From assembly GCA_035576505.1 (NCBI GenBank), contig DATLWH010000298.1:1-37641 (forward strand): DNA of 37,641 nt. The letters are read 5' to 3'. Source of the DNA: Thermoanaerobaculia bacterium (GTDB lineage Bacteria > Acidobacteriota > Thermoanaerobaculia > Gp7-AA8). The translations under genes and the position numbers were made by a program. The notes beneath the pieces were generated by a model that had not been told where the DNA came from, did not search any database, and saw nothing but the letters and a program-made list of their open reading frames with translations. How positions within the stretch are numbered: position 1 is the first letter of the stretch; each line of letters starts with the position of its first letter. Below are positions 385 to 17,500 of this stretch, in pieces.

Positions 385-412
385 GCCGGACAGATCGGAC
401 GTAGTATTCGCG

Positions 413-994
413 ATGCCGATTCTGCCGCAGGAGAGAGACTTCTTCCCCGACGACCTGTTCGACCAGCCGATCGAGGAGGCGCCGTGGGAGATCGCGCATC
501 TGCGCAGCCGGCAGGAGAAGTCGGTGGCGCGGCTTCTCATCGACGGCGGCATGCCGTTCTATCTCCCGCAAATCAAACAGACCAAAAAGCGTTCCGGGAG
601 AACGTTCGTTTCCCATCTGCCGCTGTTTCAGGGCTATATCTTTCTGCGCCGCGTGGAGGGTCTTCGCCAGACGCTCTGGCGCACGAGCGCCGTGGTCAAG
701 ATGATCGAGGTGTCGGATCAGGCACAGCTGGCCGCCGAGCTGCTGCAGATCCGGCAGCTCCAGGCCAGCGGGGCCGTTCTCACCCCGCGCATGGATCTGG
801 TCCCGGGCGACCCGGTGCGCGTCAAGGACGGGGCGTTCAGCGGGTACACGGGCGTGGTGACGGAAGAGCGCGGAGCGCTGCGGCTGATCGTGTCGGTGTC
901 GATTCTGCGAAAGTCGGTCTCCGTGGAGTTTCCGCGCGAGATGCTCTCGCAGATGAAACCAGGTGAGTCCGGCCGCGCTCGGCGAAAACTCTGA
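413..994 (+). CDS. NusG-family specialised paralog (RfaH/LoaP/TaA-like transcription antiterminator), NGN plus KOW domains.
   Basis: The NGN-like N-terminus reads WEIAHLRSRQEKSVARLL...FYLP...RTFVSHLPLFQGYIFLR. The KOW-like motif is PGDPVRVKDGAFSGYTGVV. ATG 413 is chosen over the upstream in-frame start at 296 because residues 1-39 of that ORF are low complexity and overlap the previous ORF. Confidence 0.8.
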   Translation: MPILPQERDFFPDDLFDQPIEEAPWEIAHLRSRQEKSVARLLIDGGMPFYLPQIKQTKKRSGRTFVSHLPLFQGYIFLRRVEGLRQTLWRTSAVVKMIEVSDQAQLAAELLQIRQLQASGAVLTPRMDLVPGDPVRVKDGAFSGYTGVVTEERGALRLIVSVSILRKSVSVEFPREMLSQMKPGESGRARRKL

Positions 995-1437: not shown

Positions 1438-2688
1438 ATGGACCGCGTACGAACAAAATCCAAGGCCTCCCGGATCAAACGCCCGGCCATCATCGCCGGG
1501 GTGGCCATGGTGCTGATCAGCGGTGGTGTGATGCTCGCCAACATCGACTTCAGCACGCATCGAGTCGATCGGACTACGCTCACCGTCGAAACCGTCCAGC
1601 AGGGGACGATGGAAGTCAAGGTCGGCGCCAACGGCCAACTGCTGTCCAAGCACGTCGAACAACTGGCCGCGCAGGTTTCCGCGCGGGTGGCGAAGGCGGA
1701 TATCAAACCGGGCGCGGTCGTACGGGTTGGACAGGTACTGGTGGAGCTCGCCAATCCCGATCTCATCGCCAGCGCGGAGGAAGCGCAGTCGGCGTGGGAA
1801 GGGGCGGTGGCGGAACTGCAATCCTCCGAGGCCGAGCTGCAGACGAACATGCTGAACCAGGAAGTCGTGCTCACCGGGGCGCAATTCAGTTCGGAAAAGG
1901 CGCAAGTGAAGACCGAAGCGGACGAGACCCTGGCTCGTGAGGGCCTTCTTCCGGGAATTGAGCTGAAGCGCTCGCAGCTCGATCGAACCCAACTGAAGAA
2001 GGTTTACGAGATCGAAGGGAGCCGCCTGAAAAAGGTGCGCGACAACATTGGGGTCCAACTGGCTGTCAAGAAATCCAAAGTCGCGCAGCTGGCGCGGGCG
2101 CTGGATCGCGCCAGGACGCAGGCTGCTGACCTGAAGGTCGTGGCCGGCATCAACGGCATCGTGCAGGCCATCACCGTCGAAGTCGGGCAGCAACTGCAGC
2201 CGGGCAGCCCGATCGGCCGCATCGCGCAGCAGGATCAACTGTACGCGGAGCTCAAGGTTCCCGCGCGTGAGGCCACACAGGTGCAAGCGGGACAAAAGGT
2301 CATCGTCGATACCCGCAATGGGACGGTGGACGGCATCGTCACACGCGTCGACCCCGGCGTCACGGACGGCACGGTCGTGGTGGACGTCGATCTGCGGGGT
2401 GTGGTCCCTGCCGGGGCCCGTCCGCAGTTGCCGGTCGAAGGCACCATCTACGTCAGCCAGTTGCCGAACACGCTCTACGTAGGCAAGCCCTCGTACGTCA
2501 AGAACGATACGTCGATGAGCGTGTACAAGCTCGATCCGGCCGGTCAGTATGCGGCGAGGGTCACGATCAAAGCCGGCAAGGTATCGCTCAATTACCTGCA
2601 GGTGCTGCAGGGCTTACAGGCGGGCGACCGCATCATCACCTCCGAAATCGGCGCGTGGCAGGGCCAGGATCGCATCCTGTTGAAATAG
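1438..2688 (+). CDS. HlyD/MacA-type periplasmic adaptor (membrane fusion protein) of an ABC-type efflux system.
   Basis: The N-terminal TM anchor is PAIIAGVAMVLISGGVMLA. It is followed by a barrel-sandwich segment, a long coiled coil (AEEAQSAWEGAVAELQSSEAELQ...LARALDRARTQAADLKV) and beta-barrel-like C-terminal segments. ATG 1438 is preceded by a purine-rich aagaggg. Confidence 0.85.
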   Translation: MDRVRTKSKASRIKRPAIIAGVAMVLISGGVMLANIDFSTHRVDRTTLTVETVQQGTMEVKVGANGQLLSKHVEQLAAQVSARVAKADIKPGAVVRVGQVLVELANPDLIASAEEAQSAWEGAVAELQSSEAELQTNMLNQEVVLTGAQFSSEKAQVKTEADETLAREGLLPGIELKRSQLDRTQLKKVYEIEGSRLKKVRDNIGVQLAVKKSKVAQLARALDRARTQAADLKVVAGINGIVQAITVEVGQQLQPGSPIGRIAQQDQLYAELKVPAREATQVQAGQKVIVDTRNGTVDGIVTRVDPGVTDGTVVVDVDLRGVVPAGARPQLPVEGTIYVSQLPNTLYVGKPSYVKNDTSMSVYKLDPAGQYAARVTIKAGKVSLNYLQVLQGLQAGDRIITSEIGAWQGQDRILLK

Positions 2689-2747
2689 CGTTCGCCGGGC
2701 TGAATCACAAGACCGCCCCGGCCGGCCATCCTGGCAGCAGATTCAAG

Positions 2748-3965
2748 ATGGCAGAGGATGCCATGAGCGAAGATCGTTCGGCTACGTTCCACAAGCTATA
2801 CGGAATCAGAAAGCCGAGGGTTGTCTATTATAAAAGAGATTTCCTCGACTACGTATTGATGATCGTGCTGAGCGCACTCGCTCTCAGTCTGTCGTACGGT
2901 TTTGGCCAAGCCATGTCGATCGCCGGGCTTGCTCTGTGTGCCTTCATGCTGGTCATGTTTGCGGTGAGGCACGGCGTCGAGCTCAGCGTTCCCGTGATCT
3001 TGAGAAGACCGCAGGATGTGCTTTACATGTTCGCGTATAAGCTCCAGAATTTCAAATCTCCGTATCTCATCGCGATCAGTCTCCTGCTGCTGGAAAATCT
3101 CCTGATCGCGGTAACACCGAATCTTCCGCACCATGTGGCATTGGTACGCACGGTCGCTCTCTATCTGTTTTACATCCATTTCCTTTCCATCACCGCGTTC
3201 CGAACAGTCATCCTGATCGATCATCTTCGGAAGAAGGAGCTGGTCCGTGAGGTGTTGATGCAGACCGCGTGGCGGCGGGCCATCACCGAAAAGACGAACA
3301 TCACGCTGGAAATCGTGCATGCGTACATCACCGGGCTTCTGACGCACATCATCCAGATCGCGCCGTGGTATCTCGTGATCCGCTATTTCAGCTTTTCGGT
3401 GATCTTCCTGCCGGTCGTGTGCGCGGTCAATGTCTTCGTCCACTTGAAATGGCTGCAGGGGTTCAATGGATGGTTCTACCGGGATCACTGGCTTGGGCAC
3501 AATTCGGAGGCCGAGTTTATCTTTCTCCACGGCACGCACCATGATGCCATCCCATCCGGGTTGATCGCCGTGGCGGAGAACGGCTTTCTGGAAGGGTTTC
3601 TGCGGTTCACGATCGGCTGGCCCGTGCCGTTCTACAACCCTCTGATCGCGTTTCTCATATGTATGTATGACGTCAGAACGGATATCGTCCAGCATCAGTA
3701 CATTCCTGGCGTCTATCCGAGACTATCGAGACAGTTCCTGGAGGTTTTTCAGCATCCGACGCATCACTATGGATCGCTCGAACCTTACAGCATCGGGGCG
3801 AAAGTGGATCAGCCTGGCGTTGCCGAGGCGTTCAAGAATACGTTTGCGTGGGTTCCTGACGGGATCAAGAACTCGGCCAAGCTGGACGAAGAGCTTACAG
3901 GTTTCAAATGGGACAACCCGACGCATCGGCTGATTCTGAGCCTGTACGACAGGTATCAAAAATGA
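2748..3965 (+). CDS. Polytopic membrane protein with a tripartite His-box (HX3H, HX2HH, HX2HH). Putative membrane di-iron oxygenase of the desaturase/hydroxylase superfamily. Paralog 1.
   Basis: It has multiple hydrophobic helices. The motifs are DHWLGH, HGTHHD, HQYIPG and HPTHHYG. It is homologous along its length to the ORF at 12929-14173. The start is uncertain, with ATG 2748 or 2763 both possible. Confidence 0.65.
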   Translation: MAEDAMSEDRSATFHKLYGIRKPRVVYYKRDFLDYVLMIVLSALALSLSYGFGQAMSIAGLALCAFMLVMFAVRHGVELSVPVILRRPQDVLYMFAYKLQNFKSPYLIAISLLLLENLLIAVTPNLPHHVALVRTVALYLFYIHFLSITAFRTVILIDHLRKKELVREVLMQTAWRRAITEKTNITLEIVHAYITGLLTHIIQIAPWYLVIRYFSFSVIFLPVVCAVNVFVHLKWLQGFNGWFYRDHWLGHNSEAEFIFLHGTHHDAIPSGLIAVAENGFLEGFLRFTIGWPVPFYNPLIAFLICMYDVRTDIVQHQYIPGVYPRLSRQFLEVFQHPTHHYGSLEPYSIGAKVDQPGVAEAFKNTFAWVPDGIKNSAKLDEELTGFKWDNPTHRLILSLYDRYQK

Positions 3966-4017: not shown

Positions 4018-6438
4018 ATGAATCTCTGGTTCGATTTGAAATACGCATGGCGCCTGTTGATGAAATCGAAAGGCTACTCGTTCATGTGCGCGAGCGTCGT
4101 TGCACTGAGTCTGGGGCTCGCAGTATGGACGTGCGAGCTCATTTACAGCCAGGTGCTCAAGCCCCTCCCTTTCCCGAAGTCCAGCGCCTGGTACAGCCTG
4201 CAGATCGGCACGAAAGCCGAGTCCACGCCGCATCCCGGTGTCGATGCCTACACGTATCAGGAGCTGCTGAAGCGCAATCGCTCGGCCGACTACCTCGGGG
4301 CCTTCGCGGAGCAGCCCGTCGTTCTCAGTGAAGGACAGGCGAGCACGCGGTTGCGGGGCGTGGGAATCAGTCCGCGCCTGCTCGCCGCAACGCAGACGCC
4401 GCCTCTCATGGGGCGCATCTTTCAGGAATCGGATGGCAAGTCCGGGGCCGCCCCGGTAGCCATCCTCAGCTACGAGACATGGCAAACGCACTTCGCCGGC
4501 GATTCGAATGTCGTCGGCAAGATGACTCGAATTGACTCGGCGCCGGTGCAGATCATCGGCGTAATGCCGAAAGATTTTCTGGCGTTTCGCGATTTCGAGC
4601 TCTGGGAGCCGCTGCAGATGCCGGCCCTGGCGCGGCCGGCCGACTCGACGATGACATTGATGCCGTTCGTCATCGCGGCGGACAAGAAGAAGGTCGTTGC
4701 GAATCTGAACGAGATGAAGCCGGCGATTGCGGGCGTCAATCACGATCATCCGGAACTGTTCGACTCCGGGCGGCACGTGGCGCTCATTCCTGCCCATCAA
4801 ATGTACACGCATTCCTTTGCGCCGATCGTGATGATGATGAGTCTCCTCGCCGCGGCCGTGTTGCTGATCGGCGGTATGAACATCGGCATGGTATTTCTGG
4901 CGCGATTGCTGGAGCGCAGCCGCGAGATCGCGTTGCGTAATGCACTCGGCGCGTCGCGCGGGCGGCTGATGCGGCTATGCCTGCTGGAGACGGCCTTGAT
5001 CGTTCTGCTCGGGCTCGTGGCCGGGTGGGGGCTGGCGGGACTGGGTGTCCGTTGGACGCAGGGTCTCTATGAATTCGGGTCGCGGATCAAGGGGACCGGA
5101 CGCCCTCCCAACCTACTGCAGTTACGGCCCGCCGATCTGGCGGCGGCATTGATTTGCGCCCTGGCGATCTGGCTGCTCAGTACGCTCGTTCCGGCATGGC
5201 GTGTGGTCAGACAGGACGCGGCCGAAGTGCTGGCGGGCAGCGGCAAGGGAACGTCCCGCCCCGCCGGCAACAGGAGCGTGGCTCTGCTCGTCGGTGTGCA
5301 AGTGGTGGTCTCCTGCCTGGTCCTGGTGGTCTGTACGAATCTGGTGCTGGCCGTCAAGAAGGAGGTGAACAAGCCTACCGGCCTGAACACCGCGGGCGTC
5401 ATCATCGCGACCAACCCTACAGTCTTTGACGCACGCTTTGCCCAGCCGGCCGAGCGCCTGCGTTATTGGGAGGAATTGAAGACGTCAATCGAGAGCAGGG
5501 TCCCGGGTGCCGCAGTGGCCTTTACCACGGAGGTGCCGACGGAACCAGGCAGCGTGCCCGCTGCCATCGAGACGCAGCAAGGCACGACCAACAAGGGTGC
5601 GTTCAAGTTGCCGGCCACGATCGTGTCGGAAGGCTATTTCTCGATGCTTGGGCTGAACGCCCGTTCAGGCCGTTTGTTCGAAAGTACCGACAACAGCACC
5701 TCCCTCAACGTGGCCGTCGTCGATGAGAAACTGGCGGCGCGTTATTGGCCCGATCAAAATGCGCTGGGCAAACGTGTTCAATTGAACCCGACGGAGAATG
5801 GCCCCTGGCTCGCCGTCGTAGGAGTTGTCTCCGCCGTTTCGGCCGGGCCTTACAGCTCCGACGTCGGGATCATTTATCAGCCGTTGCGCCAGGCGCTGCC
5901 GTCGGGCTTCCGGCTGTTGGTCAGACCGCCGAGCACCACCAGCGACAGCCGGAGCGCGATACGAGCCGCTGCCTTTGCGGTCGATCGGGATTTGCCATTG
6001 CAGAACCTGCAAACGGTCGACGACTACGTAGCGTCGCTGAATATCGCGACGTCAGCCCTGGTACCGGCCGTCACCGCCGTGGCGCTCATTACGGCATTGC
6101 TGGCGGCATCCGGTCTGTTCGGGCTGATCAGCCGCTCGGTCGCGCAACGTACGCAGGAAGTGGGCATCCGCCGTGCGCTGGGTGCCTCGCCGTGGCGGGC
6201 CACTTCGAGGTTCACCCGCCAGGGGGCGGTGTATTTGTGCGTGGCGATTGTCGGGGTCGCGCTGGGGGTCATGGTGATGCCCCTTCTCAGCCGCGCGATC
6301 GACAATATTCTCGACCACGTGCTCCTCGGCACGTTTGGGGTCGTCCTTCTCATCGCCGGCGTCATCTTTTTCGCCTCGTATCTGCCCAGCCGTAGCGCGG
6401 TGGCCATGGAACCGGGCGACGCGTTGCGTTACGAATAA
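4018..6438 (+). CDS. Duplicated FtsX/MacB-type ABC transporter permease (ADOP-like, 806 aa, two MacB_PCD plus FtsX halves).
   Basis: The N-terminus is LKYAWRLLMKSKGYSFMCASVVALSLGLAV. The first FtsX block is LERSREIALRNALGASRGRLMRL. The second is AQRTQEVGIRRALGASPWRATSRF, and the C-terminus is SYLPSRSAVAMEPGDALRYE. Confidence 0.9.
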   Translation: MNLWFDLKYAWRLLMKSKGYSFMCASVVALSLGLAVWTCELIYSQVLKPLPFPKSSAWYSLQIGTKAESTPHPGVDAYTYQELLKRNRSADYLGAFAEQPVVLSEGQASTRLRGVGISPRLLAATQTPPLMGRIFQESDGKSGAAPVAILSYETWQTHFAGDSNVVGKMTRIDSAPVQIIGVMPKDFLAFRDFELWEPLQMPALARPADSTMTLMPFVIAADKKKVVANLNEMKPAIAGVNHDHPELFDSGRHVALIPAHQMYTHSFAPIVMMMSLLAAAVLLIGGMNIGMVFLARLLERSREIALRNALGASRGRLMRLCLLETALIVLLGLVAGWGLAGLGVRWTQGLYEFGSRIKGTGRPPNLLQLRPADLAAALICALAIWLLSTLVPAWRVVRQDAAEVLAGSGKGTSRPAGNRSVALLVGVQVVVSCLVLVVCTNLVLAVKKEVNKPTGLNTAGVIIATNPTVFDARFAQPAERLRYWEELKTSIESRVPGAAVAFTTEVPTEPGSVPAAIETQQGTTNKGAFKLPATIVSEGYFSMLGLNARSGRLFESTDNSTSLNVAVVDEKLAARYWPDQNALGKRVQLNPTENGPWLAVVGVVSAVSAGPYSSDVGIIYQPLRQALPSGFRLLVRPPSTTSDSRSAIRAAAFAVDRDLPLQNLQTVDDYVASLNIATSALVPAVTAVALITALLAASGLFGLISRSVAQRTQEVGIRRALGASPWRATSRFTRQGAVYLCVAIVGVALGVMVMPLLSRAIDNILDHVLLGTFGVVLLIAGVIFFASYLPSRSAVAMEPGDALRYE

Positions 6439-6473: not shown

Positions 6474-7205
6474 ATGACTACTCAGCCTCTCATCAGTCTG
6501 CAAGGCATCAAGAAGGTCTTTTACACCGAGGAATTGGAGACAGCGGCGCTAGACGACATTCAGATCGACATCGATCAAGGCGAATATGTTTCGATCAGCG
6601 GTCCGTCCGGCTGCGGGAAATCGACGCTGTTGTCGGTGATTGGACTCCTGCATTCCGCCACCGATGGAAAATATCTTCTCGACGGCAAGGAGGTAACAGG
6701 TCTGCAATCCTCAGAGCAGGCGCGTGTGCGGAACCGGGAGATCGGGTTCATTTTTCAGGCGTTCAACCTGATTCCCGACATGAGCGCGTTCGAGAACGTC
6801 GAACTGCCGTTGACGTATCGCGACGACCTCAATAAGAAACAGCGCCATGACCTTGTCCTGACGGCGCTGGAACAGGTGAATATGGCGGAGCGCCAGAAGC
6901 ACTTCCCCTCGCAGCTGTCCGGCGGTCAACAACAGCGCGTCGCGATTGCCCGCGCTCTGGTCGGGAAACCGAAGGTTCTGCTCGCGGACGAACCGACGGG
7001 GAACCTCGATTCGAAGAACGCGCAGCTCATCATGCAGATGCTCGACGGGCTGCATGGGCAAGGCAGTGCCATCGTCATGGTCACACACGATCCGCGCTTC
7101 GCCGAGCGGGCAGAGCGGCTGATCTCGCTGTTCGACGGACGGATCGTTGAGGATCGGCGCCTTGACGCGAGCAGCTCCCCGGTAGGGGTCGCCGCAAGCG
7201 CCTGA
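6474..7205 (+). CDS. ABC transporter ATP-binding protein (MacB/LolD-type NBD).
   Basis: Walker A is GPSGCGKST, the signature is LSGGQQQRVAIARAL, Walker B is VLLADEPTGNLD and the H-loop is VMVTHD. Confidence 0.95.
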   Translation: MTTQPLISLQGIKKVFYTEELETAALDDIQIDIDQGEYVSISGPSGCGKSTLLSVIGLLHSATDGKYLLDGKEVTGLQSSEQARVRNREIGFIFQAFNLIPDMSAFENVELPLTYRDDLNKKQRHDLVLTALEQVNMAERQKHFPSQLSGGQQQRVAIARALVGKPKVLLADEPTGNLDSKNAQLIMQMLDGLHGQGSAIVMVTHDPRFAERAERLISLFDGRIVEDRRLDASSSPVGVAASA

Positions 7206-7220
7206 AGACGGGAACGCATC

Positions 7221-7469
7221 ATGACGAAGATCGAAATACTCAATCTCATCGCGCAGCATACGCGAGAGATACTGCCAGGCCTCGACGCGCACGAGTTCGT
7301 CGCTGCCGACCGCCTGGTCGACTTGGGCGCCAATTCCGTTGATCGCGCCGAGATCGCCATGGTCGTGCAGGAATCACTGGGCTTGTCGGTGTCGCGCGTC
7401 GAGCTGTTCGGGCCGAAGAACATCGGGGAGCTGGCGGATCTGTTCCTGAATAAAGCGCATGCAGCCTGA
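7221..7469 (+). CDS. Discrete acyl carrier protein, the donor ACP of a beta-branching (HCS) cassette (AcpK/CurB-like).
   Basis: It is 82 aa with the phosphopantetheine attachment motif DLGANSVDRAEI. It overlaps the start of the downstream KS-like gene by 11 nt. Confidence 0.85.
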   Translation: MTKIEILNLIAQHTREILPGLDAHEFVAADRLVDLGANSVDRAEIAMVVQESLGLSVSRVELFGPKNIGELADLFLNKAHAA

Positions 7470-8676
7470 AGCGGTCGTGACCGGGCTGGGCGTCATCTCG
7501 GCCATTGGTCAGGGGAAGGCTTCATTTATGAACGCGTTGCTTGCGGGCGAGACCGCTTTCGGCGTGATGCGGCGCCCGGGCCGCCAGAACGAATCCGCGT
7601 ATCTCGGCGCGGAGATTCTGGAAATCGGTTTCCCTCAAGCGATCACCAGGCAGACGTTGCGCGCGGCCTCGCTTTCTGTGCAGGTGGCTCTGTTCGTACT
7701 GCTGGAGGCGTGGATCGAGGCGCGGTTATACGACGTCGATCCTCGCCGGATCGGCCTCATCGTGGGCGGCTCGAACATTCAGCAGCGCGAATTGACCCAG
7801 GTTCATGAGGCCTATCGCGACTCTCCGGCGTTTCTGCGGCCCACGTACGCCCTGTCGTTCATGGATTCGGATCTCTGTGGCTTTTGTACGGCGCAGTTCG
7901 GAATACGCGGTCTGGCCTACACTGTGGGCGGCGCATCGGCGAGCGGTCAACTGGCGATCGTTCAGGCGGCGCAGGCGGTCGTCACAAAACAGGTCGATGT
8001 CTGTATCGCGGTGGGCGCGCTGATGGATCTGTCGCATTGGGAGTGCCGGGGATTGCGGGCGCTGGGGGCGATGGGGTCGGATCGCTATGCGAACGAGCCC
8101 GCGCTGGCTTGCCGTCCCTTCGACAGGGACCACGACGGATTCATTTTCGGCGAGTCCTGCGGAGCGGTGGTGATCGAGTCGCTGGAGTCGAGTCAGAGCC
8201 GGGGTCTGAAGCCTTACGCAACGTTGCGCGGCTGGGGAATCGCCATGGACGGCAACCGCAATCCCAATCCCTCGCTCGAGGGAGAAATGCAGGCCATTCA
8301 GATCTCACTCGATGCAGCCGGATGGGCGCCCGCGCAGATCGACTATGTGAATCCGCACGGCACGGCCTCGGTCGTCGGCGACGAAACCGAGCTGAAAGCA
8401 CTGCAGGCCTCCGGATTGTCGGGAGTTTTTTTAAACGCGACCAAGTCACTTATTGGTCACGGTCTCAGCGCCGCTGGTACGGTGGAAGTGATTGCCACAC
8501 TGCTGCAGATGCGGGCCGGGCGGTTGCATCCAACCCGCAATCTGGAGAATCCTATCGAGCCGACGCTCAATTGGGTCAAAGACAAGTCGGTCGAGCATCA
8601 AATCGAGAATGCGTTGACGCTGAGCATGGGATTCGGCGGGATCAATACGGCTCTGTGCTGGCAGCGGCAGAATTAG
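7459..8676 (+). CDS. Non-elongating ketosynthase with active-site Cys replaced by Ser (KS-S, malonyl-ACP decarboxylase; PksF/CurC/TaK-like).
   Basis: The fold is a thiolase/KS fold. The active-site position reads GGASASG, with the Ser codon at 7936-7938 where KSs carry Cys. Both catalytic His contexts are kept (NPHGTAS and KSLIGHGLSAAG). Confidence 0.85.
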   Translation: MQPEAVVTGLGVISAIGQGKASFMNALLAGETAFGVMRRPGRQNESAYLGAEILEIGFPQAITRQTLRAASLSVQVALFVLLEAWIEARLYDVDPRRIGLIVGGSNIQQRELTQVHEAYRDSPAFLRPTYALSFMDSDLCGFCTAQFGIRGLAYTVGGASASGQLAIVQAAQAVVTKQVDVCIAVGALMDLSHWECRGLRALGAMGSDRYANEPALACRPFDRDHDGFIFGESCGAVVIESLESSQSRGLKPYATLRGWGIAMDGNRNPNPSLEGEMQAIQISLDAAGWAPAQIDYVNPHGTASVVGDETELKALQASGLSGVFLNATKSLIGHGLSAAGTVEVIATLLQMRAGRLHPTRNLENPIEPTLNWVKDKSVEHQIENALTLSMGFGGINTALCWQRQN

Positions 8677-8679
8677 CTC

Positions 8680-9456
8680 ATGACCCTTGCCGCCTACGAG
8701 ACGATCAAGGTGGAATTCCAGGATTCGATCTGTTTCTTGCAGATCGACCGGCCTGACGCGAACAACACGATCAACAGCGAGCTCATCACCGAGTGCAATG
8801 ATGTGCTGTCGGTGTGCGAGCAGTCCGCAACTGTCGTCGTATTGAGTGGCTCGCCGGAAGTGTTCTGCTTTGGCGCCGATTTCAAGGCCATCGCCCGCGT
8901 ATCGAAGACGGAGCAGGCCGAGGACGAGGGCCCGGGGCCGCTGTATGACTTGTGGCTGCGCATTGCGTCCGGTCCGTACGTGACGATCTCGCATGTGCGC
9001 GGCAAGGTGAATGCGGGAGGCGTGGGGTTCGTCGCAGCGAGCGATATCGTTCTCGCCGACGAGACCGCGGTGTTCAGTTTGTCCGAGCTGCTGTTCGGGC
9101 TGAACCCTGCGTGCGTGCTGCCGTTCCTCATCCGCCGCATCGGGTTTCAAAAGGCGAATTTACTAACGCTGATGACACAGCCCATCTCGGCGAGGCAAGC
9201 CTGCGAATGGGGATTGGTGGACGCGGTCGAGCCGCAGAGCGATGTTCTGGTGCGTCGTTATTTGCAACGGTTGCGGCGACTGTCAAAGACCGCGATTCGA
9301 CGCTACAAGATCTACATGAGCCGCATCAACGTGCCCCTGGAAGCGCAGAGATCGCCGGCACTCGCCGCCAATCGGGAAGTTTTCTCCGACACCGACAATC
9401 TGCAAGCCATTGCCCGGTACGTCGACCACGGTATATTTCCGTGGGAAAAATCGTAG
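8680..9456 (+). CDS. Enoyl-CoA hydratase/crotonase family, ECH1-type (PksH/CurE-like HMG-ACP dehydratase).
   Basis: CFLQIDRPDANNTIN, EVFCFGADF, YVTISHVRGKVNAGGVGF, FSLSELLFGLNPACVLPFLIRRIG and the FPWE C-terminus closely resemble my recollection of B. subtilis PksH rather than PksI. Confidence 0.8.
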   Translation: MTLAAYETIKVEFQDSICFLQIDRPDANNTINSELITECNDVLSVCEQSATVVVLSGSPEVFCFGADFKAIARVSKTEQAEDEGPGPLYDLWLRIASGPYVTISHVRGKVNAGGVGFVAASDIVLADETAVFSLSELLFGLNPACVLPFLIRRIGFQKANLLTLMTQPISARQACEWGLVDAVEPQSDVLVRRYLQRLRRLSKTAIRRYKIYMSRINVPLEAQRSPALAANREVFSDTDNLQAIARYVDHGIFPWEKS

Positions 9457-9489: not shown

Positions 9490-10422
9490 ATGTTCTCAGG
9501 CCAGGGGTCGCAGTACTTCCACATGGGAAAGGCACTGTACGATGGCAACGACACTTTCCGGGACTGGATGACCCGGCTCGACGAGATTGCACGGCAGTCA
9601 TCAGGCCAGTCGGTAATCGAGACCCTTTACTCCGGTGCTCACCGCATGGGAGATCCATTCGACCGCACCCTGCTCACGCATCCGGCAATTTTCATGGTGG
9701 AATACTCGCTCGCGCAGTCGTTGATTCACGCCGGCGTGCGGCCGGTCAAGGTCCTGGGCGTCAGCATGGGCTCGTTCGCCGCGGCGGCAGTGGCAGGTTT
9801 CATCGATGCCGGCGATGCATTGACCGCCGTGATCCGGCAGGCGATTGCGATCGAAGAAGGTGGCGAGCCGGGAGGCATGATCGCCGTCCTTGCCGACCCG
9901 GGGCTCTTTGCAGAGGACTTTCTCGGCGGCCGCAGCGAACTGGCGGCCGTCAATTTCTCTTCAAACTTCGTCGTGTCCGCAAGACAAACGGAGCTGGCCG
10001 AGATTGCAACGGCCCTAAAACAACGCAACGTCGCCCACCAACGGCTTCCGGTATCGTTTCCGTTTCATTCGCAGTGGATCGATCAGGCGAAATCGGCCTT
10101 CGGTTCTTTCATGACGTCGATTCCATGTAAGCGCGGCACGTTGCCGCTGGCCTGCTGTGACAAGACCACAATCTTGTCCGACCTGTCCGATGACTACTTC
10201 TGGAACGTCGTCCGTCACCCGATTCGATTCCGCGAAACCACCGCGCGGCTGGAACGAGAGGGTACTCACCGCTACATCGACGTCGGTCCCTCAGGAACCT
10301 TGGCCACCTTTCTGAAGTACGGGCTACCCGCAGCCACCGAATCGACGGTCCATTCCATTCTGACGCCTTTCGGCGTGGATCAGAAGAATCTGGCCGCCGT
10401 GTCGGCGTCGGGCGGACACTAG
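9490..10422 (+). CDS. Acyltransferase-family protein of the PksD/PedC-like clade (putative proofreading acyl hydrolase, AH).
   Basis: MFSGQGSQYFHMGKALY, THPAIFMVEYSLAQ, the nucleophile elbow GVSMGSFAAAAVAG (no His before the Ser), PVSFPFHS and GPSGTLATF all fit. The overall pattern matches PksD-type rather than FabD-type ATs. Confidence 0.8.
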   Translation: MFSGQGSQYFHMGKALYDGNDTFRDWMTRLDEIARQSSGQSVIETLYSGAHRMGDPFDRTLLTHPAIFMVEYSLAQSLIHAGVRPVKVLGVSMGSFAAAAVAGFIDAGDALTAVIRQAIAIEEGGEPGGMIAVLADPGLFAEDFLGGRSELAAVNFSSNFVVSARQTELAEIATALKQRNVAHQRLPVSFPFHSQWIDQAKSAFGSFMTSIPCKRGTLPLACCDKTTILSDLSDDYFWNVVRHPIRFRETTARLEREGTHRYIDVGPSGTLATFLKYGLPAATESTVHSILTPFGVDQKNLAAVSASGGH

Positions 10423-10427
10423 CCCCA

Positions 10428-11189
10428 ATGCGAGTCTTTGCCCTTTCGGACATCCACATCGACTACGCCGTGAACTCCAAGTGGATTGAAGGCCTGTCCG
10501 CCGTTGAATATCAGAACGATGTGCTCATTCTAGCCGGCGACGTGACCCACGCCCCGCGACGGCTGGAATGGTGCCTCAACACGCTCGCGAGGCGTTTTCA
10601 GAAAGTGCTCTTCGTTCCCGGAAACCATGACCTGTGGGTTATCCCCGAAGACCGTAAAAAGAATTCACTGCAAAAGTTCGACGATGTCTGCGCGTTGGTC
10701 GAATCGAGCGGCGCGTCGATGCAAGCGTTTCGCGAGCGGGGTCTGTCGATCATTCCACTGCTGGCCTGGTATGACTATTCCTTCGGCGAGCCGAGCGACG
10801 AATTGAGGTCGATCTGGATGGACTACCGCGCATGCCGTTGGCCGAGCGGATACACCGACAAAGACGTCGCCGTGCACTTTGCGGCGTTGAATGACAAACA
10901 CGTCAGCGTTCTGGGCGACACCGTCATCACGTACTCGCACTTTTTGCCACGCATTGATCTGATGCCGGCGGGCATCCCGCGCTCGGGCAAGCTCCTCTAT
11001 CCAATCCTGGGCTCGGCGAGACTGGACCGCCAGTTGCGAAGGCTAAACGCAAACATTCACGTCTACGGACATAGCCATGTGAACCGTCGCGTGAAGATCG
11101 ACGGCGTAACGTACATCAACAATGCATTCGGCTACCCCAGCGAGACCTGGATCACCTCGAAGGGCCTGATGAGTATCCATGAGTGGTAG
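10428..11189 (+). CDS. Calcineurin-like metallophosphoesterase.
   Basis: The full motif set is present: SDIHID, AGDVTH, GNHDLW, SHF and YGHSH. It overlaps the downstream PPTase start by 11 nt. Confidence 0.85.
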   Translation: MRVFALSDIHIDYAVNSKWIEGLSAVEYQNDVLILAGDVTHAPRRLEWCLNTLARRFQKVLFVPGNHDLWVIPEDRKKNSLQKFDDVCALVESSGASMQAFRERGLSIIPLLAWYDYSFGEPSDELRSIWMDYRACRWPSGYTDKDVAVHFAALNDKHVSVLGDTVITYSHFLPRIDLMPAGIPRSGKLLYPILGSARLDRQLRRLNANIHVYGHSHVNRRVKIDGVTYINNAFGYPSETWITSKGLMSIHEW

Positions 11190-12012
11190 TGCCGCGGACC
11201 GGCGCAGCCAGGCGGAGAGCGGGATCATCCCGCTCACGCCAGCCGAGATTCATGTATGGCTCGCTTTTTACGATGAAATCAGCGACGAGCGCCTGCATGC
11301 CGTCTATCGTCATCTGCTCGATGACGCGGAAAGGGAACAGGAACCACGCTTCTACTTCGCGCGCGACCGGTGTCGTTACCTGGTTACGCGGGCATTGGTG
11401 CGGACGGTATTGTCGCGCTACGCGCCCATCGCGCCCGAGGAATGGATGTTTTCCACGAATGCCTATGGGCGGCCGGCGATCGCGAACGATACTGCGCGCC
11501 ACCTATCGTTCAATATTTCGCACACGCACAGTCTGATTGTTCTCGGCGTGACCAGTCGGCGCGCGTTAGGGTTGGATGTCGAGAACGTCCGCGACCGGCC
11601 AGCGTCGATCGATATCGCGGCTCACTATTTCGCGCCACAGGAAGTTGCGGTGCTTACTGCCGCGCCGCCGCTTCAGCAGCAGGATCGATTTTTTGAGTAC
11701 TGGACGTTCAAGGAATCGTACATCAAGGCGCGGGGCATGGGTTTATCCCTGCCCCTCGACAAGTTCAGCTTTCACTACCCGGATGATCATGCCGTCGAGA
11801 TCGCCATCGATGCCGACCTGGCCGACGATGCGGCACGCTGGCAGTTCTGGCAGTTCCGGCCGAGGCCGGAATACCTGGTCGCGGTCTGCGCCGAGCGAGT
11901 CGGCGCTCAGCCTGCGAGTCTTATCGCTCGGCAGGCAATTCCTATGTTGGCTGACAAACCATTTGTTCTCGACTTCCTCCGGGTTTCAGAACACGCGCAA
12001 CAGGAGAGTTAG
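11179..12012 (+). CDS. Sfp-type 4'-phosphopantetheinyl transferase.
   Basis: FNISHTHSLIVLGV, GLDVE and FEYWTFKESYIKARGMGL (the W/KEA motif) are present. The stop TAG is immediately followed by the ATG of the next gene. Confidence 0.85.
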   Translation: MSGSAADRRSQAESGIIPLTPAEIHVWLAFYDEISDERLHAVYRHLLDDAEREQEPRFYFARDRCRYLVTRALVRTVLSRYAPIAPEEWMFSTNAYGRPAIANDTARHLSFNISHTHSLIVLGVTSRRALGLDVENVRDRPASIDIAAHYFAPQEVAVLTAAPPLQQQDRFFEYWTFKESYIKARGMGLSLPLDKFSFHYPDDHAVEIAIDADLADDAARWQFWQFRPRPEYLVAVCAERVGAQPASLIARQAIPMLADKPFVLDFLRVSEHAQQES

Positions 12013-12885
12013 ATGATCGCCTTTGTATTTCCCGGTCAAGGTTCACAGAAACGTGGGATGGGTCAAGGTTTGTTCGATGAAGTGCCTGAATATGCCGCGG
12101 TTGAGAAGGATGTCGACGCCATTCTCGGCTATTCAATGCGGGCGCTGTGTCTGGAGGACGCGGATAACCGTCTGAGACAGACACAATTCACTCAGCCCAG
12201 TCTCTACGTGGTCAATGCGCTGCACTACTACAAGGCGGCCGGCGAGGGTGCCCGGCCCGCGTACCTGGCGGGCCACAGTCTGGGCGAATACAACGCGCTG
12301 CTCGCGGCGGGCGTGTTCGATTTTCTGACTGGGCTCCGACTGGTGAAGAAGCGGGGGGAGTTGATGTCGCAGGCAAAGAATGGCGGCATGGGCGCGGTGA
12401 TCGGCCTGAGTGCCGGCGCGATTGCCAAGGTCGTAGCCGAGAGCGGACTGCAGAGTCTTGACATCGCCAATTTCAATACACCGTCGCAAACGGTGGTATC
12501 GGGCCCGGTCGACGACATCAGGCGCGCCGGTTCGTTCTTCGAGAAGGCAGGCGCCCAGATGTATATCCCGCTGCAGGTCAGCGCCGCCTTCCATTCGCGA
12601 TATATGGCGGATGCCGCGAACGTGTTCGGTGATTTTCTCGCACCGATGTCGTTTGCTCCGCCGAAAACGCCTGTCGTCGCCAACGTGACCGCCCAGCCGT
12701 ACCCTGCCGACGACAGTTCGGAGTCGGTCAAATCGCTGCTGGTGAATCAGATCACGCATTCCGTCCAATGGGCGCAGAGCATCAGCTTTCTCATCAGTCA
12801 GGGCGTCACGACATTCAGTGAACTGGGTCCTGGAAATGTGTTGACGCGGATGGTGCAACAGATTCAGCAGCGAAAAGCCGCCTGA
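12013..12885 (+). CDS. Malonyl-CoA:ACP transacylase, free-standing trans-AT (FabD-like).
   Basis: FVFPGQGSQ, GHSLGEYNAL and VSAAFHS are present. The size is 290 aa, and all PKS modules downstream lack AT domains. Confidence 0.9.
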   Translation: MIAFVFPGQGSQKRGMGQGLFDEVPEYAAVEKDVDAILGYSMRALCLEDADNRLRQTQFTQPSLYVVNALHYYKAAGEGARPAYLAGHSLGEYNALLAAGVFDFLTGLRLVKKRGELMSQAKNGGMGAVIGLSAGAIAKVVAESGLQSLDIANFNTPSQTVVSGPVDDIRRAGSFFEKAGAQMYIPLQVSAAFHSRYMADAANVFGDFLAPMSFAPPKTPVVANVTAQPYPADDSSESVKSLLVNQITHSVQWAQSISFLISQGVTTFSELGPGNVLTRMVQQIQQRKAA

Positions 12886-12928
12886 CGTATCGCCACGCTT
12901 GCCGAGGCGAATCCCTCGGGAGGAATCT

Positions 12929-14173
12929 ATGGGTAGGACAGCTCCGCGCCGTTCATTCATGATGCAGTACCGCGCGGAAGATTTCCCGCTCTACTTGTTG
13001 GGGCTGGTGCTCGCCGGCACGCTGATCGCGCCCGCACTTCCGAGCCGAAGTGAACAACTGTTGCTGGTTGCCGCTCTCTTGTACATGGTGGCGTTCTTCC
13101 TGATCAAGCACGGCGCGAAATTCGAGGTGCGCTTCTTTCACGATGTTCTCGAGGGGCTGACGCGCTATCCGGTCATGCTGGTGCGCAACTGGTGGATGGC
13201 CCGTCATGCCATAATCCCCATCACCGGCGTATTTTTGCTCGCGCTGACCGGCGAACGCTTCCTGCGTCCCGCGCTTGCCGGCACGAAGTGGCTCAATCGT
13301 TTTCCGTGGTGGTGGGTGGTGTGGACCGCGTTCCTGCTCATCACGTTGTTTCGGGTGACGATTCTGATCGCCCATCTGCTCCGTGCTTCGGTCGTTCGCG
13401 AAGTACTTGAGGACTCGGCGCAGAAAAAGATGATCGAAGTTTTGCCGATGCACCAGCATATCCTCCATGCGTTCATCACCGGCATGCTGGCGCATCTATC
13501 GGTGGTTGCGCCCTGCGTTTTGTTCTACATGCTGACCAAGCCGTCAAACTTGCGCGAGGTGTTGCTCGTAGCCGGCTATGTGGTCTGGTCGGGGGTGGCC
13601 CGCCCTCTGAAGAAGCGCAAGATCATCGAATCGCCGCCAAAAATCGGCTTCAACCTGGTATATCAGAATCATACGATCGCTCACAGGTCGCGGTTCTTTT
13701 TCACCGTTTTTCATGGTCATCACCATGATGCCATCCCGTCGGCATTGATCGGATCCGCCGGCGGAACGGGATTCTTTGAAAACGTCGATCGGGGACTGAC
13801 CTGGCTCGATTTCCTGAATAGCGTCGTGGTCATGCAAATCCTGTGGGGCTATTCGATTCTGTTCGACATGGTCGTTCATCAATACATCCCGGGCGTATTT
13901 CCCTTCGCCAAAGTAACGGTCCTCGGAACCGCTCACCACGTCACCCATCACTTCGGCAGCGCACTTCCTCTGGGACTGATCTTTAACGGGTATATCGAGA
14001 CCCGTGACTACGACAACGGCTACAAGTCGGACAACAAGGTGACCCGCTGGTTCGTCGATCAGGTGGAGCGGCGGGAGGGACTCGACCCGGAGCTCCGCAG
14101 GAAGTACCTGGCATTCGGTCCGACAACGTCTTCACTGTCCAGCGATGCCTCCACCCGTGCCGCGGCCGAATAA
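12929..14173 (+). CDS. Polytopic membrane His-box protein, paralog 2 of 2748-3965 (putative membrane di-iron oxygenase).
   Basis: The motifs are NHTIAH, FHGHHHDAIPS, VVHQYIPGV and TAHHVTHHFGS. It shares VREVL and HAFITGMLAH blocks with paralog 1. ATG 12929 is preceded by gggagg. Confidence 0.7.
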   Translation: MGRTAPRRSFMMQYRAEDFPLYLLGLVLAGTLIAPALPSRSEQLLLVAALLYMVAFFLIKHGAKFEVRFFHDVLEGLTRYPVMLVRNWWMARHAIIPITGVFLLALTGERFLRPALAGTKWLNRFPWWWVVWTAFLLITLFRVTILIAHLLRASVVREVLEDSAQKKMIEVLPMHQHILHAFITGMLAHLSVVAPCVLFYMLTKPSNLREVLLVAGYVVWSGVARPLKKRKIIESPPKIGFNLVYQNHTIAHRSRFFFTVFHGHHHDAIPSALIGSAGGTGFFENVDRGLTWLDFLNSVVVMQILWGYSILFDMVVHQYIPGVFPFAKVTVLGTAHHVTHHFGSALPLGLIFNGYIETRDYDNGYKSDNKVTRWFVDQVERREGLDPELRRKYLAFGPTTSSLSSDASTRAAAE

Positions 14174-14261
14174 GGGCCCATCACGTTGGTCGTTTCCTGT
14201 TCGGTAACCGATTTTGCCGCCTGATTTCATTCGCTGATATCTGCACGTCAAGAGCGCTACA

Positions 14262-14510
14262 ATGACGCAACAGGAACTGCACCGAGATTTGACCGAGTCC
14301 TATCTCAAATCTCTCATTGCCGAGGTTTGCGATTCTTTGAGCTCAGATTTCGACTCGTCGACGGCATTTGGTGAGCTGGGGATCGATTCATTCTATGTGT
14401 TGAAGATCGTCAGAAGGCTGGAGGCGGACTTCGGTACGTTGCCCAAGAGCCTTCTTTTCGAGCACTTCCGCATCAGCGAATTGGCGAACTACTTCGTCAC
14501 GAAACACGCC
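14262..14510 (+). other. ACP0, a carrier domain at the extreme N-terminus of the PKS.
   Basis: The motif is FGELGIDSFYVLKIVRRLE, with the Ser43 codon at 14388-14390. Confidence 0.8.
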
Positions 14511-17500
14511 CAGACGATCAATGCGAAGTTTGCCGCGGAACTGGAGGGTGCGGTTTCGCCCGCTTTGGGCGGCGGCCGGCAACTGGAACTGGTTGCGCCG
14601 ATGGAAATAGTCAAGGTGGCTCCGGTGAAGGCGCGCACGTCCGTGGAGCAAAAGCCCCTCCGCATCCTGGAGAGCAAAGCCCGGACGCATCCCAAGATCG
14701 GGCCGCTCGTCCGGGAGCTTTACGACCGCTATAAGTACGAAGGAACCGCGTCGCGCGGGACGAGAAAGATTGCGCCGAATCTATTCATCGGCGGCTCGAG
14801 GCGCGGCTATTTCAACTACGGGCGAAGCAAGGACATCATCCTGGTGTACGGCTATAGCGGGGCGCAGGACTATCTGCCCACGCTTCGCGAGGAAATGTCC
14901 GGCTATTGTGATGCAAACGGCCTTCAACTCAATTTCTTCAGCGACGGAGAGATTCCGCCGATCGCCGGACGTTCGTTCTCAGCCACGCCGTTCGGCGTAA
15001 TGCAGCGCATCGTGAACCTCAAGGAATTCTCCCTCGAGGGCGGCGCGATGCGCCGCCTGCGATATCAGGTATCCAAGTTCCAGAAAGCCGGCGTGGCCAG
15101 AACGGAAGAGTACCGGAGCGGCACCAGGCCCGACACGGACCAGGACATCGCCCGCGTCATCGATCGATGGTGCGAAGGGAAGACGATGGTCAACCCGCTG
15201 GTGCACGAAGTGAAAGGCGAAATTCTCGCCGGCACGCTGCCCGCGGAGCAGCGGCTGTTCCTCACGTATCTCGACGAGGTCCTCCAGAACGTCATCCTCG
15301 TCGATGAAATGTCGCCCGAAATCAACGGCTACTTGATGGATCTGGAATTCTATCCTCCGGAGATGCCGATGGGAGGGCTGGATCTCGCGATTGTACAAAT
15401 CGTGGCCATTCTCGCCGCGGAAGGCCGCGATGTGCTGAGCCTGGGCGGGACCTACGGTGTCAAGATTGAACCCTCCGCCACCGCGGATCCCGAGCTCGAC
15501 AAGCTCCTGGACAATCTGCGTGAACAGAACATATTCAATGACGAGAGCAATCTTCAGTTCAAGAACAAATTCCGCCCGCTGACCATGCCTATCTTTCTCT
15601 GCCGCCCGATAGGCAGCGGCAATCCCGACAATATCCTCGACATCATCATGATGATTGCCGATCCGGAGAGGATGCAGACGCCGGATGAGGAGACCGACAC
15701 CTTCGGAGATACCGCTCCGCCCGAGGTCGCGACGGTGATTGCAGAACCGGTGGCGCGTCGGTCAATGGCTGTGGCAGCGGCGCTGGCAAGTGCCGATCAG
15801 GTGATCGAAGGGAATGATCGGTCGAGCGTTCTGGCGGAATTCGGTTTCAATCCCCTCAATATTCCGCACGAACATGTCGCGATCGATCTGAAGACCGACT
15901 CGTGGGCGCAACTGGAGATGCCTGCAATCGCGGCGCAAATGAAGCATCTGCATTCACGACTGCAGCAGCCGGCGAGTGTCGACGACAGCTTGAGGGCGGT
16001 CTTTCCGTTCCCGCATTTCGTCCTTACGACCTCCGGGCAGGCGGCCGAGAGCATCTTTTTCAAGACCTGGCCGAAGAAAGGCGTCGTACCGCAGAATCTG
16101 CTGTTTCCCAGCACGATCTTCCATCAGATCGACAAAGGCTTCACGCCGAGGGAGCTGCCTCATCCCGCGGTCTTCCAGTTGAATGCGCGAGAGCCGTACA
16201 AAGGCAACATGGATCTCGATGCGCTACAGGCGCTGGTGGCGCAGGATCCAGCCGCAATTGCCTGTGTCTGCATCGATGTAGGTAACAATGCTTCAGGCGG
16301 CCAACCGGTCTCCTTGCAGCATCTGCGCGACGTCAGAGCGCTGCTCGCCGCACATTCCATCCCACTCGTGATCGACGGCACGCGGGTGATGGAGAATGCG
16401 CAGTTCCTGATCGAACAGGGAAAGGAATGCGGGGGCAAGAGCATTTGGGCGGTCGTGCGGGAGATCTTCTCCTGCGCTGACGCGGTCATCGGAAGCCTGA
16501 CGAAGGATTTCTGCGTCAACAAGGGCGGAATCGTCGCCATCAATGACATCAAGCTGTTCCAGAGACTTCAGGAGGTCGTTCTTGAAGAAGGAGCCGGGCT
16601 CGATCTGATCGATGCGAAACTGATCGCTCTTTCTCTACAGAAGCGAAAGCACATCGAAGCCAAGGTGTTGCGCAGGATGGAGGGTGTGCGCCTCATCTGG
16701 CAGGCCTTGGCCGAGCGTGGCGTTCCGGTCGCGCAACCCGCCGGTGGGCACTGCATTCTGATCGACGTCAAGCAGATTCCAGAATTCAGGGCTCTCGGGA
16801 ATCCGGTCGCGTCATTCCTGGCCTGGTTGTATTTGAACACCGGGATTCGCGCGGGCGCACACAGTGTGGGAATGCAGAAACGTACCCCGATCAATGATCT
16901 TGTCCGTCTGGCCATCCCTGTCGGCTTGAAGCGTGAGCAAATCGACAACGTGATTGACCGGCTTGTCGATGCATTCGGGAAGAAGACGAACATTCCTGAA
17001 ATCGTGATCGAGAGCAGCGTACCACAGCCGCTGGGCAGCGTCTACGCGAAGTTCAGATTAGAGAAATATCATCACGTTTCAGGAGGGATCGCCGCCGGAA
17101 CAGACGCCGCGCCTTCTTCCGTTGCCGGCCCATCGCCAGTTTCACCGGAGCCGGCGGAGGTTTCGTCGCCAGGCGAGGCCGTCGTGGTTGACAGCGTACC
17201 CGCCGAAACTCCATCCGCACCGACTCCCATGAATGCGAGACCGCGCCGCGCGCACAACGTTGCCATTGTCGGAATGGCGGGCCGTTATCCCAAAGCGGGC
17301 AATGTGAGGGAGCTGTGGGAGAATCTGGCCGGCGGCAGAGACTGCATTGAAGAGATTCCCGCCGAGCGCCATGAACGCCGGCTGCAGCATGGAAGCAACG
17401 AGAGGTATCGCGGCGGTTTCATCGACGGCGTCGATAAGTTCGACTCTCTCTTCTTCAACATTTCTCCCAGAGAAGCGGAAATGCTGGATCCGCAAGAGCG

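Follow-up and report, generated by a model that had tools for sequence, protein, structure and literature searches.

This locus raises the question of why a gene for a NusG-like protein (positions 413-994, + strand) stands directly before a train of biosynthetic genes more than 36 kb long, and through which signal its product might reach them. The window, by which we mean the whole stretch of DNA analyzed, is a complete 37.6-kb contig (DATLWH010000298.1, here G000:C298) from a fragmented metagenome-assembled genome (MAG) of an uncultured soil acidobacterium (990 contigs, 79% complete, 5.4 Mb), assigned through its named relatives to the class Thermoanaerobaculia of the phylum Acidobacteriota. 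Our comparison sample consisted of 201 Thermoanaerobaculia genomes, which we searched for the paralog, for a marker of the gene cluster and for leader elements. The answer that we favor, and consider probable by analogy with known NusG paralogs, is that the protein is a trans-acting processivity (antitermination) factor dedicated to this cluster and its >36-kb operon, which encodes a trans-acyltransferase (trans-AT) polyketide synthase (PKS) and nonribosomal peptide synthetase (NRPS) system; the antitermination itself we infer. Literature searches returned no paper joining NusG paralogs with gene clusters of Acidobacteria or Thermoanaerobaculia.

The window protein is a non-housekeeping NusG paralog

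The open reading frame (ORF) at 413-994 on the + strand is free of stops and translates into 193 amino acids (aa), in which an N-terminal extension (MPIL..E..FP..LF) precedes the NGN domain and a KOW-like domain forms the C-terminus. Pfam recognized the NusG NGN domain over residues 25-98 (32.1 bits against a cut-off of 22.2). The UpxY, RfaH and NusG hidden Markov models (HMMs) of NCBIfam aligned over residues 25-177, and it is because of this span that we consider a KOW-type C-terminal domain to be present; residues 120-174 were also matched by NusG KOW chains in the PDB. In an AlphaFold2 model built on 42 family members, the NGN domain was predicted with confidence (predicted local distance difference test, pLDDT, 80-93) and the N-terminal extension packed against it, while the C-terminal domain (residues 122-180) was modeled as beta strands at low confidence (pLDDT 44-58). 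A Foldseek fold search returned NusG, RfaH and Spt5, including RfaH-ops complexes. The MPIL..E..FP..LF extension is common to the family, and the sequence RSRQEK at the start of helix 1 is invariant family-wide. A first-pass annotation of this DNA, made from the letters alone, had described 413-994 as an NGN plus KOW protein, and Pfam, NCBIfam, PDB and fold searches all agree with it.

To place the protein among the known families, we relied on curated HMM scores and the literature for LoaP, TaA, ActX and UpxY. The model for housekeeping NusG (TIGR00922) scored 31.4 bits against a cut-off of 135.7, those for RfaH scored 49.8 against 144.5 (TIGR01955) and 39.2 against 124 (NF006534), and that for LoaP (NF033641) scored 26.8 against 125. 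The best match was UpxY (NF033644), with 69.2 bits over residues 25-177, and here too the cut-off of 100 was not reached. UpxY was always the best match in ten relatives tested as well, at 66-82 bits and likewise under the cut-off. By these curated cut-offs the family is UpxY/RfaH-like yet distinct from UpxY, RfaH and LoaP. The first-pass annotation had set its reading against the case of a housekeeping NusG beside secE and rplK, and that case failed: the canonical nusG of this genome encodes a different protein of 195 aa on contig G000:C725, within rpmG-secE-nusG-rplK-rplA, and the neighbors of the window gene are a repeat-protein ORF and hlyD. The protein carries the marks of a specialized NusG paralog: it has an NGN domain, its gene is a copy additional to housekeeping nusG, and that gene is linked to a single long operon that is horizontally mobile.

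The paralog is linked to the PKS cluster and probably derives from a polysaccharide-type lineage

Relatives of the paralog were found in 68 of the 201 genomes and, apart from weak or partial matches, fell into two tiers. The first comprises about 50 genomes, with proteins 40-55% identical to the window protein; at the tier-one loci examined, the paralog heads polysaccharide loci (UDP-glucose dehydrogenase, GDP-mannose dehydratase, epimerases, glycosyltransferases). The second, PKS-linked tier, defined by at least 68% identity to the window protein, comprises the window's own genome and six others, the latter with proteins 68-84% identical. As a marker for the cluster we used its metallophosphoesterase (at least 71% identity), which occurred in exactly the same 7 of the 201 genomes as the paralog of this tier and on the same contig as the paralog except in one fragmented assembly. 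When we mapped the gene sets of the relatives by tblastn, the full cluster gene set adjoined the paralog. The adjacency of paralog and gene train is not chance, as the two co-occur wherever either was found.

The position of the paralog within the cluster varies. It is at the head and co-directional in the window, G127, G115, G002, G151 and G103, divergent in G183 and at locus L006, in the middle of the cluster at L012, and 10 kb into the cluster at L011, where it separates the accessory genes from PKS1. That the linkage outlasts this positional shuffling argues for function, and the comparison strongly supports a functional link of the paralog to the PKS cluster. In each of two named Thermoanaerobaculia MAGs, DASQJY (L092/L097) and DASUSN (L096/L100), two PKS-tier paralogs lie on separate contigs, and these genomes may hold two clusters each.

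In a maximum-likelihood tree, for which the only outgroups were E. coli RfaH (sequence identical to PDB 2OUG_A) and the genome's own NusG, the PKS-linked proteins formed one clade (support 100/95). This clade is nested among the polysaccharide-type proteins, sister to those of the same genus with moderate support (90/88), and is distant from both outgroups. Given this nesting, the cluster regulator most likely descends from a polysaccharide-locus regulator of the lineage. The first-pass annotation had read the gene as a specialized NusG paralog serving a long PKS operon and had proposed a phylogeny; the non-housekeeping, cluster-linked character stands, with a separate PKS clade far from RfaH and NusG as these two outgroups place it, and the reading is refined in that the protein is not LoaP, RfaH or UpxY by their cut-offs.

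Farther afield, the best 80 named relatives belong to Acidobacteriota except for one MAG labeled Myxococcales and one unclassified "bacterium". A wider family with the N-terminus MPIL..E..FP..LL is common in Planctomycetota (L163-L276), including cultured members of Singulisphaera, Paludisphaera, Aquisphaera, Tautonia and Telmatocola. A quick k-mer screen of the Planctomycetota relatives gave no common downstream motif; the k-mers enriched there were rejected as an element, being the paralog's own C-terminal codons (DWQVE).

A unique, conserved element lies in the leader of the operon

About 110 nucleotides (nt) before hlyD, at 1300-1326 on the + strand, the leader holds a hairpin, CGGTT-CCTGT-AACCG (1300-1314), then the spacer ACAG and the mini-hairpin motif GCGAAGC (1320-1326); the sequence following the CGGTT..AACCG hairpin is GGGCGAAGC, the most invariant part of the element. 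The relatives share the consensus CGGTTnnnGTAACCGAC(A/G)GGGC(G/A)AAGC, located 45-130 nt beyond a TTGACA promoter. The pattern AACCGASRGGGCRAAGC occurs exactly once in the 5.4-Mb genome G000, at 1310-1326, and exactly once or twice each in G127, G115, G002 and G183, always in a cluster leader and in the direction of the operon. With the reversed pattern as a control, 0-1 hits were obtained even when one mismatch was allowed. A one-mismatch match on G000:C215 is inside an ORF and was taken as chance. The second copy in G127 (L050, G127:C35, 14160-14176) lies 53 nt before a second ABC-transporter gene inside the cluster, at which another transcription unit starts, and of the copies found it is the one whose flanks most resemble the leader of the window. 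The 5' arm of the hairpin is replaced or shifted at L006, L012 and L103, and the 3' part is kept.

Where paralog and operon have come apart, the element follows the operon. This is so for the divergent paralogs of G183 and L006, and in the genome of L011 we predicted an element upstream of hlyD, 10 kb from the paralog, and found it as CGGTTCCTGTAACCGAAAGGGCGAAGC (L079). The element is present, unique in its genome, placed in the operon leader and conserved family-wide, and 1300-1326 is a good candidate for the cognate recruitment element that the first-pass annotation had proposed to seek in the leader, and for a pause site. By its GCGNAGC core we liken it to ops and opsX, the sites of RfaH and UpxY; this ops-like interpretation is suggested because the GCGAAGC core directly follows a hairpin and because UpxY is the protein's best HMM match. 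As an oligonucleotide, d(GCGAAGC) is well known for forming an exceptionally stable DNA mini-hairpin.

In G103, the leader between paralog and hlyD (L020/L059, G103:C66) consists of a module of ~356 nt duplicated in tandem. Each copy has one element, set between a TTGACA promoter and a strong intrinsic terminator (-23 to -38 kcal/mol).

A sister element marks the polysaccharide loci

The polysaccharide-type paralogs are followed, 60-570 nt downstream and on the same strand, by tTCGGTg-N4-6-cACCGAArGGGGCGrAGCC. The exact pattern ACCGAARGGGGCRRRGCC occurred once each in 38 of the 201 genomes, 36 of which have the paralog (compared with 68/201 overall), and control patterns gave four hits in total over the same genomes. 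In 29 of the 38, the element follows the paralog at a distance of up to ~600 nt and in the same orientation; a second, independent set of loci from named genomes showed it at 38/61, never on the strand opposite the paralog. Hits on G002:C1 had neither the hairpin nor polysaccharide-locus genes nearby and were taken as chance. Common to both element types are a hairpin with the 3' arm ACCG(A), a short G-rich spacer and a GC-GNA-GC motif.

A covariance model, R1, trained only on polysaccharide-type elements, recovered the polysaccharide element of the window's own genome (37.8 bits). The two element types appear to be related by their visible motif, not by a strong model score. A search of Rfam 15 with the leader and ten related loci gave no family, JUMPstart/ops included.

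According to our search of the 201 genomes, those bearing the cluster have only one member of the paralog family each, and G000, G151 and G183 each retain one polysaccharide-type element. In G000 and G151 this element is at a polysaccharide locus adjoining a MarR_EPS-like gene. The one in G000 is an exact match (ACCGAAGGGGGCGAAGCC; G000:C805:4573-4590, - strand, L069/L080) flanked by the MarR_EPS-like gene on one side and epimerase/UDP-glucose dehydrogenase genes on the other; no paralog gene adjoins it. In G151, which also has the PKS cluster with an intact paralog, a frameshifted C-terminal remnant of a polysaccharide-type paralog lies upstream of the MarR_EPS gene and the element (L074, G151:C32, 621-826; residues 110-178, 79-84% identical to a same-genus polysaccharide-type paralog). 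More speculatively, the cluster-borne paralog may have taken over the older polysaccharide target too.

Paralog and operon appear to be separate transcription units

A -10-like TAGTAT at 402-407 (+ strand), 5 nt before the ATG of the paralog, is a possible but weak promoter of its own, read from the sequence, from which the mRNA would begin with little or no leader. At equal distance, TACTAG, TAGTAG or TTAGAAT stands in relatives, and no Shine-Dalgarno is visible before the paralog ATG in the window or in the relatives; a consensus promoter scan did not pick up TAGTAT at 402-407. After the gene, a terminator-like hairpin with a T-tract (1028-1055, + strand) lies within the block CTGTCyCTTTyTGmACAG, which is kept in the closest relatives. 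We also considered CTGTCTCTTTTTGAACAG (1041-1058) as a sigma-54 promoter and rejected this, as the -24 GG and -12 GC are not conserved; it fits better as the terminator of the paralog gene.

The sole long non-coding stretch of the window is 995-1436, alignment with relatives placing the hlyD start at the ATG at 1437; no + strand ORF of at least 100 aa was found in 995-1386, and no intrinsic terminator between 1327 and 1437. Upstream of hlyD, relatives carry promoters of the form TTGACA-N17-TAnnnT (twice in G103, and in G183, L012, G002 and L079). In the window, their position is occupied by the palindrome TTGCATccttcATGCAA, present twice in identical form at a 25-nt interval (1206-1222 and 1231-1247, + strand), a candidate operator/promoter region. 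The palindrome was not seen in the relatives' leaders that we compared and is specific to the window genome; the pair probably serves a dimeric regulator as an operator that overlaps the operon promoter. The operon comes with a separate leader, to which relatives add a separate TTGACA-type promoter, and for this reason the paralog gene seems to form a unit of its own: it "heads" the operon by position but probably acts in trans.

A proposed mechanism and its alternatives

These observations fit a sequence of events in which the paralog would be made from its own small transcription unit, and RNA polymerase would start from a promoter that belongs to the operon and lies between paralog gene and hlyD, and would transcribe the leader. 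About 110 nt before hlyD, a CGGUU..AACCG RNA hairpin and the GCGAAGC non-template DNA mini-hairpin would pause the enzyme and present a docking surface, a step that we place at 1300-1326 by analogy with RfaH-ops and UpxY-opsX. The NGN domain would then bind the element, displace housekeeping NusG and ride with RNA polymerase, suppressing pausing and termination, whether Rho-dependent or intrinsic, as the enzyme crosses the untranslated gaps and the megasynthase genes of 12 and 7.5 kb.

Several results weigh against this reading. In the window, the consensus scan gave no sigma-70-like site in the interval 995-1437. The residues with which RfaH reads ops (H20, R23, Q24, R73) are not conserved in the paralog, which is expected if it has a different specificity. 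Eight of 19 further PKS-tier loci have no element within 3 kb, which would be consistent with a mid-cluster placement of the paralog. At E <= 0.1, model R1 recovers just 4 PKS-type elements, and that of the window is not among them. Covariation is weak: 17 sequences yield one compensatory pair, a result equaled by 27 of 500 shuffles, so the hairpins are supported by conserved pairing potential, not by covariation, and conservation of the element could reflect sequence recognition of any kind. The count of terminator-like structures in the window is 20 compared with 11.4 +/- 3.7 in shuffles, a mild excess. Finally, leader terminators, whose presence would make antitermination indispensable, were found only in G103 among nine PKS-type leaders.

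An alternative is a mechanism of the LoaP type, in which the paralog would be recruited through its KOW domain by a nascent RNA hairpin, not by non-template DNA, and would serve mainly for read-through of intrinsic terminators. The hairpin would be CGGUU..AACCG or, in the sister element, a GGGC-GAA-GCCC stem. The element offers two potential RNA hairpins, and its pairing potential is high (87% of cells pair, compared with at most 42% in slid controls). The compensatory change is at L033 (GAC..GUC), and the innermost pair of hairpin 1 is G:C, U:A or A:U (T:A or A:T in the DNA) by locus. The strong terminators of G103 follow directly after each element, and the top whole-chain TM-score of the PDB fold search, 0.47, was to 8f5g, a "NusG-RNA complex". 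These features are offset by the protein and by the pattern of conservation: the LoaP HMM gave 27 bits against its cut-off of 125, with UpxY and RfaH scoring higher; GGGCGAAGC, the part that varies least, matches the ops/opsX DNA-hairpin motif; it is the 5' arm of hairpin 1, not the 3' part, that three loci have replaced or moved; and terminators are missing in 8/9 PKS-type leaders. We regard recruitment of the LoaP type as unlikely.

Quite unlikely, too, is that the element belongs to something else, either as the operator of another regulator or as a cis-acting RNA of an attenuator or riboswitch-like kind, with the paralog recruited elsewhere or independently of any site. The binding of element and paralog is proposed from sequence, with the weak covariation already described; a MarR_EPS-like gene adjoins the element in some polysaccharide loci; and the separate palindrome pair at 1206-1247 must bind something. 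However, no gene other than the paralog is shared by every locus with an element, whether of the polysaccharide or the PKS type; the element lies in the transcribed leader, not at the promoter, and invariably has the orientation of the operon that follows it; and the PKS loci have no MarR_EPS gene, nor did the element match an Rfam family.

It is very unlikely that the paralog is a general polysaccharide/envelope regulator merely neighboring the cluster, or a negative (pro-pausing or pro-termination) factor keeping it silent, for although sister proteins head polysaccharide loci, G000, G151 and G183 keep a polysaccharide-type element elsewhere without a second paralog, and class-2 UpxY proteins enhance pausing (PMC11685472), the PKS clade accompanies the cluster in 7/7 genomes as a clade of its own with a cluster-specific element variant, and mere adjacency would not outlast the observed rearrangements.

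The gene train and its products

Under the processivity reading, the target operon extends from 1437 to 37641 on the + strand and runs past the contig end, as judged from gene calls and domains and from the equal gene set in relatives. All 15 genes after the paralog (15/15) are co-directional on the + strand over more than 36 kb. They begin with HlyD (1437-2688), a membrane protein resembling fatty-acid (FA) hydroxylases (2655-3965), MacB (4018-6438) and an ABC ATPase (6474-7205), followed by a free-standing acyl carrier protein (7221-7469), a ketosynthase (7459-8676), an enoyl-CoA hydratase (ECH; 8680-9456), a trans-AT (9490-10422), the metallophosphoesterase (10428-11189), a phosphopantetheinyl transferase (11179-12012), a second trans-AT (12013-12885) and another FA-hydroxylase-like membrane protein (12899-14173). 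Two trans-AT PKS megasynthases of 3965 aa (14262-26159) and 2506 aa (26200-33720) and an NRPS that is open at the contig end (from 33734) complete the train, all on the + strand. The first-pass annotation had described a co-directional operon of this length with tiny or overlapping junctions, and every junction that it quoted was exact: the 11-nt overlaps at 7459/7469 and 11179/11189, and the TAG-ATG abutment at 12012/12013. The widest gap within the train is 88 nt, and the sole large gap is that of 392-442 nt from the paralog to HlyD.

Three further features of the window were observed. The proteins encoded at 2655-3965 and 12899-14173 are polytopic membrane proteins paralogous to each other, and both carry a weak fatty-acid-hydroxylase (His-box) signature; the pair is kept in all cluster versions, and L012 has three copies. 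A promoter-like CTGATA-18-TACAAT at 14234-14263 ends on the first PKS ATG, inside the 88-nt gap, and may be an internal promoter. At the contig start, positions 1-148 consist of seven tandem 21-nt units encoding heptads of the type DLVE[AS]KR, within an open ORF (1-384, + strand) for a repeat protein that had no Pfam match; these tandem repeats probably broke the assembly.

Implications

To our knowledge, the activation of very long antibiotic or capsule operons by NusG paralogs has been studied in only a few cases (RfaH, UpxY, LoaP, TaA). For the PKS-linked ones among them, the recruitment signal is an RNA hairpin in the case of LoaP and is not known for TaA. The window adds a new lineage, or variant, to the known kind of specialized NusG paralog that serves long secondary-metabolite operons, along with a concrete cis element open to testing. 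With a family of paralogs defined in a class of uncultured acidobacteria, and with a unique, conserved candidate docking site for it, protein and site form a pair that can be tested. For heterologous expression of these acidobacterial trans-AT PKS clusters, it would be advisable to keep the paralog and the leader element at 1300-1326 with the operon.

Taken jointly, the two element types allow a broader reading, which we put forward tentatively and hold to be somewhat doubtful as a whole. Acidobacterial paralogs would use an ops-type GCGAAGC DNA mini-hairpin after a pause hairpin, as RfaH does in Proteobacteria and UpxY in Bacteroidota, whether this is ancestral or was repeatedly reinvented. 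Protein and element would have co-evolved as their target changed from a polysaccharide locus to a PKS/NRPS cluster that is mobile, and in G000, G151 and G183 the sole paralog copy may drive both, the resident gene of G151 having decayed. This would suggest the GCGNAGC-type non-template hairpin as a cross-phylum recruitment code and would make the locus a case of natural retargeting of a NusG-paralog system from polysaccharide to polyketide genes.

Comparison with known systems

The likeness seen to TaA of Myxococcus xanthus is one of context, TaA being a NusG-like protein at the ~40-kb trans-AT PKS/NRPS operon for myxovirescin (TA). TaA is needed for expression of its cluster (Paitan 1999, as cited in PMC7819879); its mechanism and site are not known (PMC7819879).

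The LoaP systems of Bacillus velezensis (dfn/mln) also pair a NusG paralog with a trans-AT PKS operon and a long leader, and the terminators after the elements of G103 are a further point of resemblance. Beyond its low HMM score (27/125), the window system differs in that LoaP is proposed to bind an RNA hairpin and bypass leader terminators, whereas most leaders here are without terminators and the invariant motif resembles a DNA ops site.

With RfaH, the paralog shares the NGN plus KOW architecture, action in trans from a gene of its own (here as proposed) and a leader with a GC-closed mini-hairpin. For the ops site of RfaH, the reported non-template hairpin is GCGGTAGC (Saba et al. 2024, PMC11685472), compared with GCGAAGC in the window. 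The 12-nt ops of RfaH, GGCGGTAGnnTG, had two one-mismatch hits in the window, both deep in coding sequence, compared with 1.93 expected. Apart from a TIGR01955 score below cut-off and the unconserved ops-reading residues, the gene here is linked to its target, whereas that of RfaH is unlinked. The C-terminal domain of RfaH is alpha-helical when autoinhibited and refolds to a KOW barrel; for the paralog, the AlphaFold2 model gave no sign of such a helical form and, at low confidence, predicted beta strands.

UpxY, a group of NusG paralogs of Bacteroides capsule operons, is the closest comparison by HMM score, although the score is below the cut-off. UpxY is the first gene of its operon, downstream of the ops site and followed by the inhibitor gene upxZ. 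Here, the element is downstream of the paralog gene, or in another unit or across a divergent promoter region, and the next gene is hlyD, with no UpxZ-like partner. The window paralog further differs in its acidobacterial origin, its conserved MPIL..E..FP..LF extension and its PKS/NRPS target. However, its sister proteins are, like UpxY, at polysaccharide loci, and the signals resemble each other in sequence. The UpxY sites of Bacteroides span a region of ~40 bp that encodes a pause hairpin and then a YGCGNAGCR non-template hairpin, as in the opsX examples of PSE (CTGCGAAGCATA) and PSA (cggtttg...caaaccgcgtagcgca) (PMC11685472), and the leader element at 1300-1326 likewise consists of a hairpin-encoding region followed by a GCGNAGC motif.

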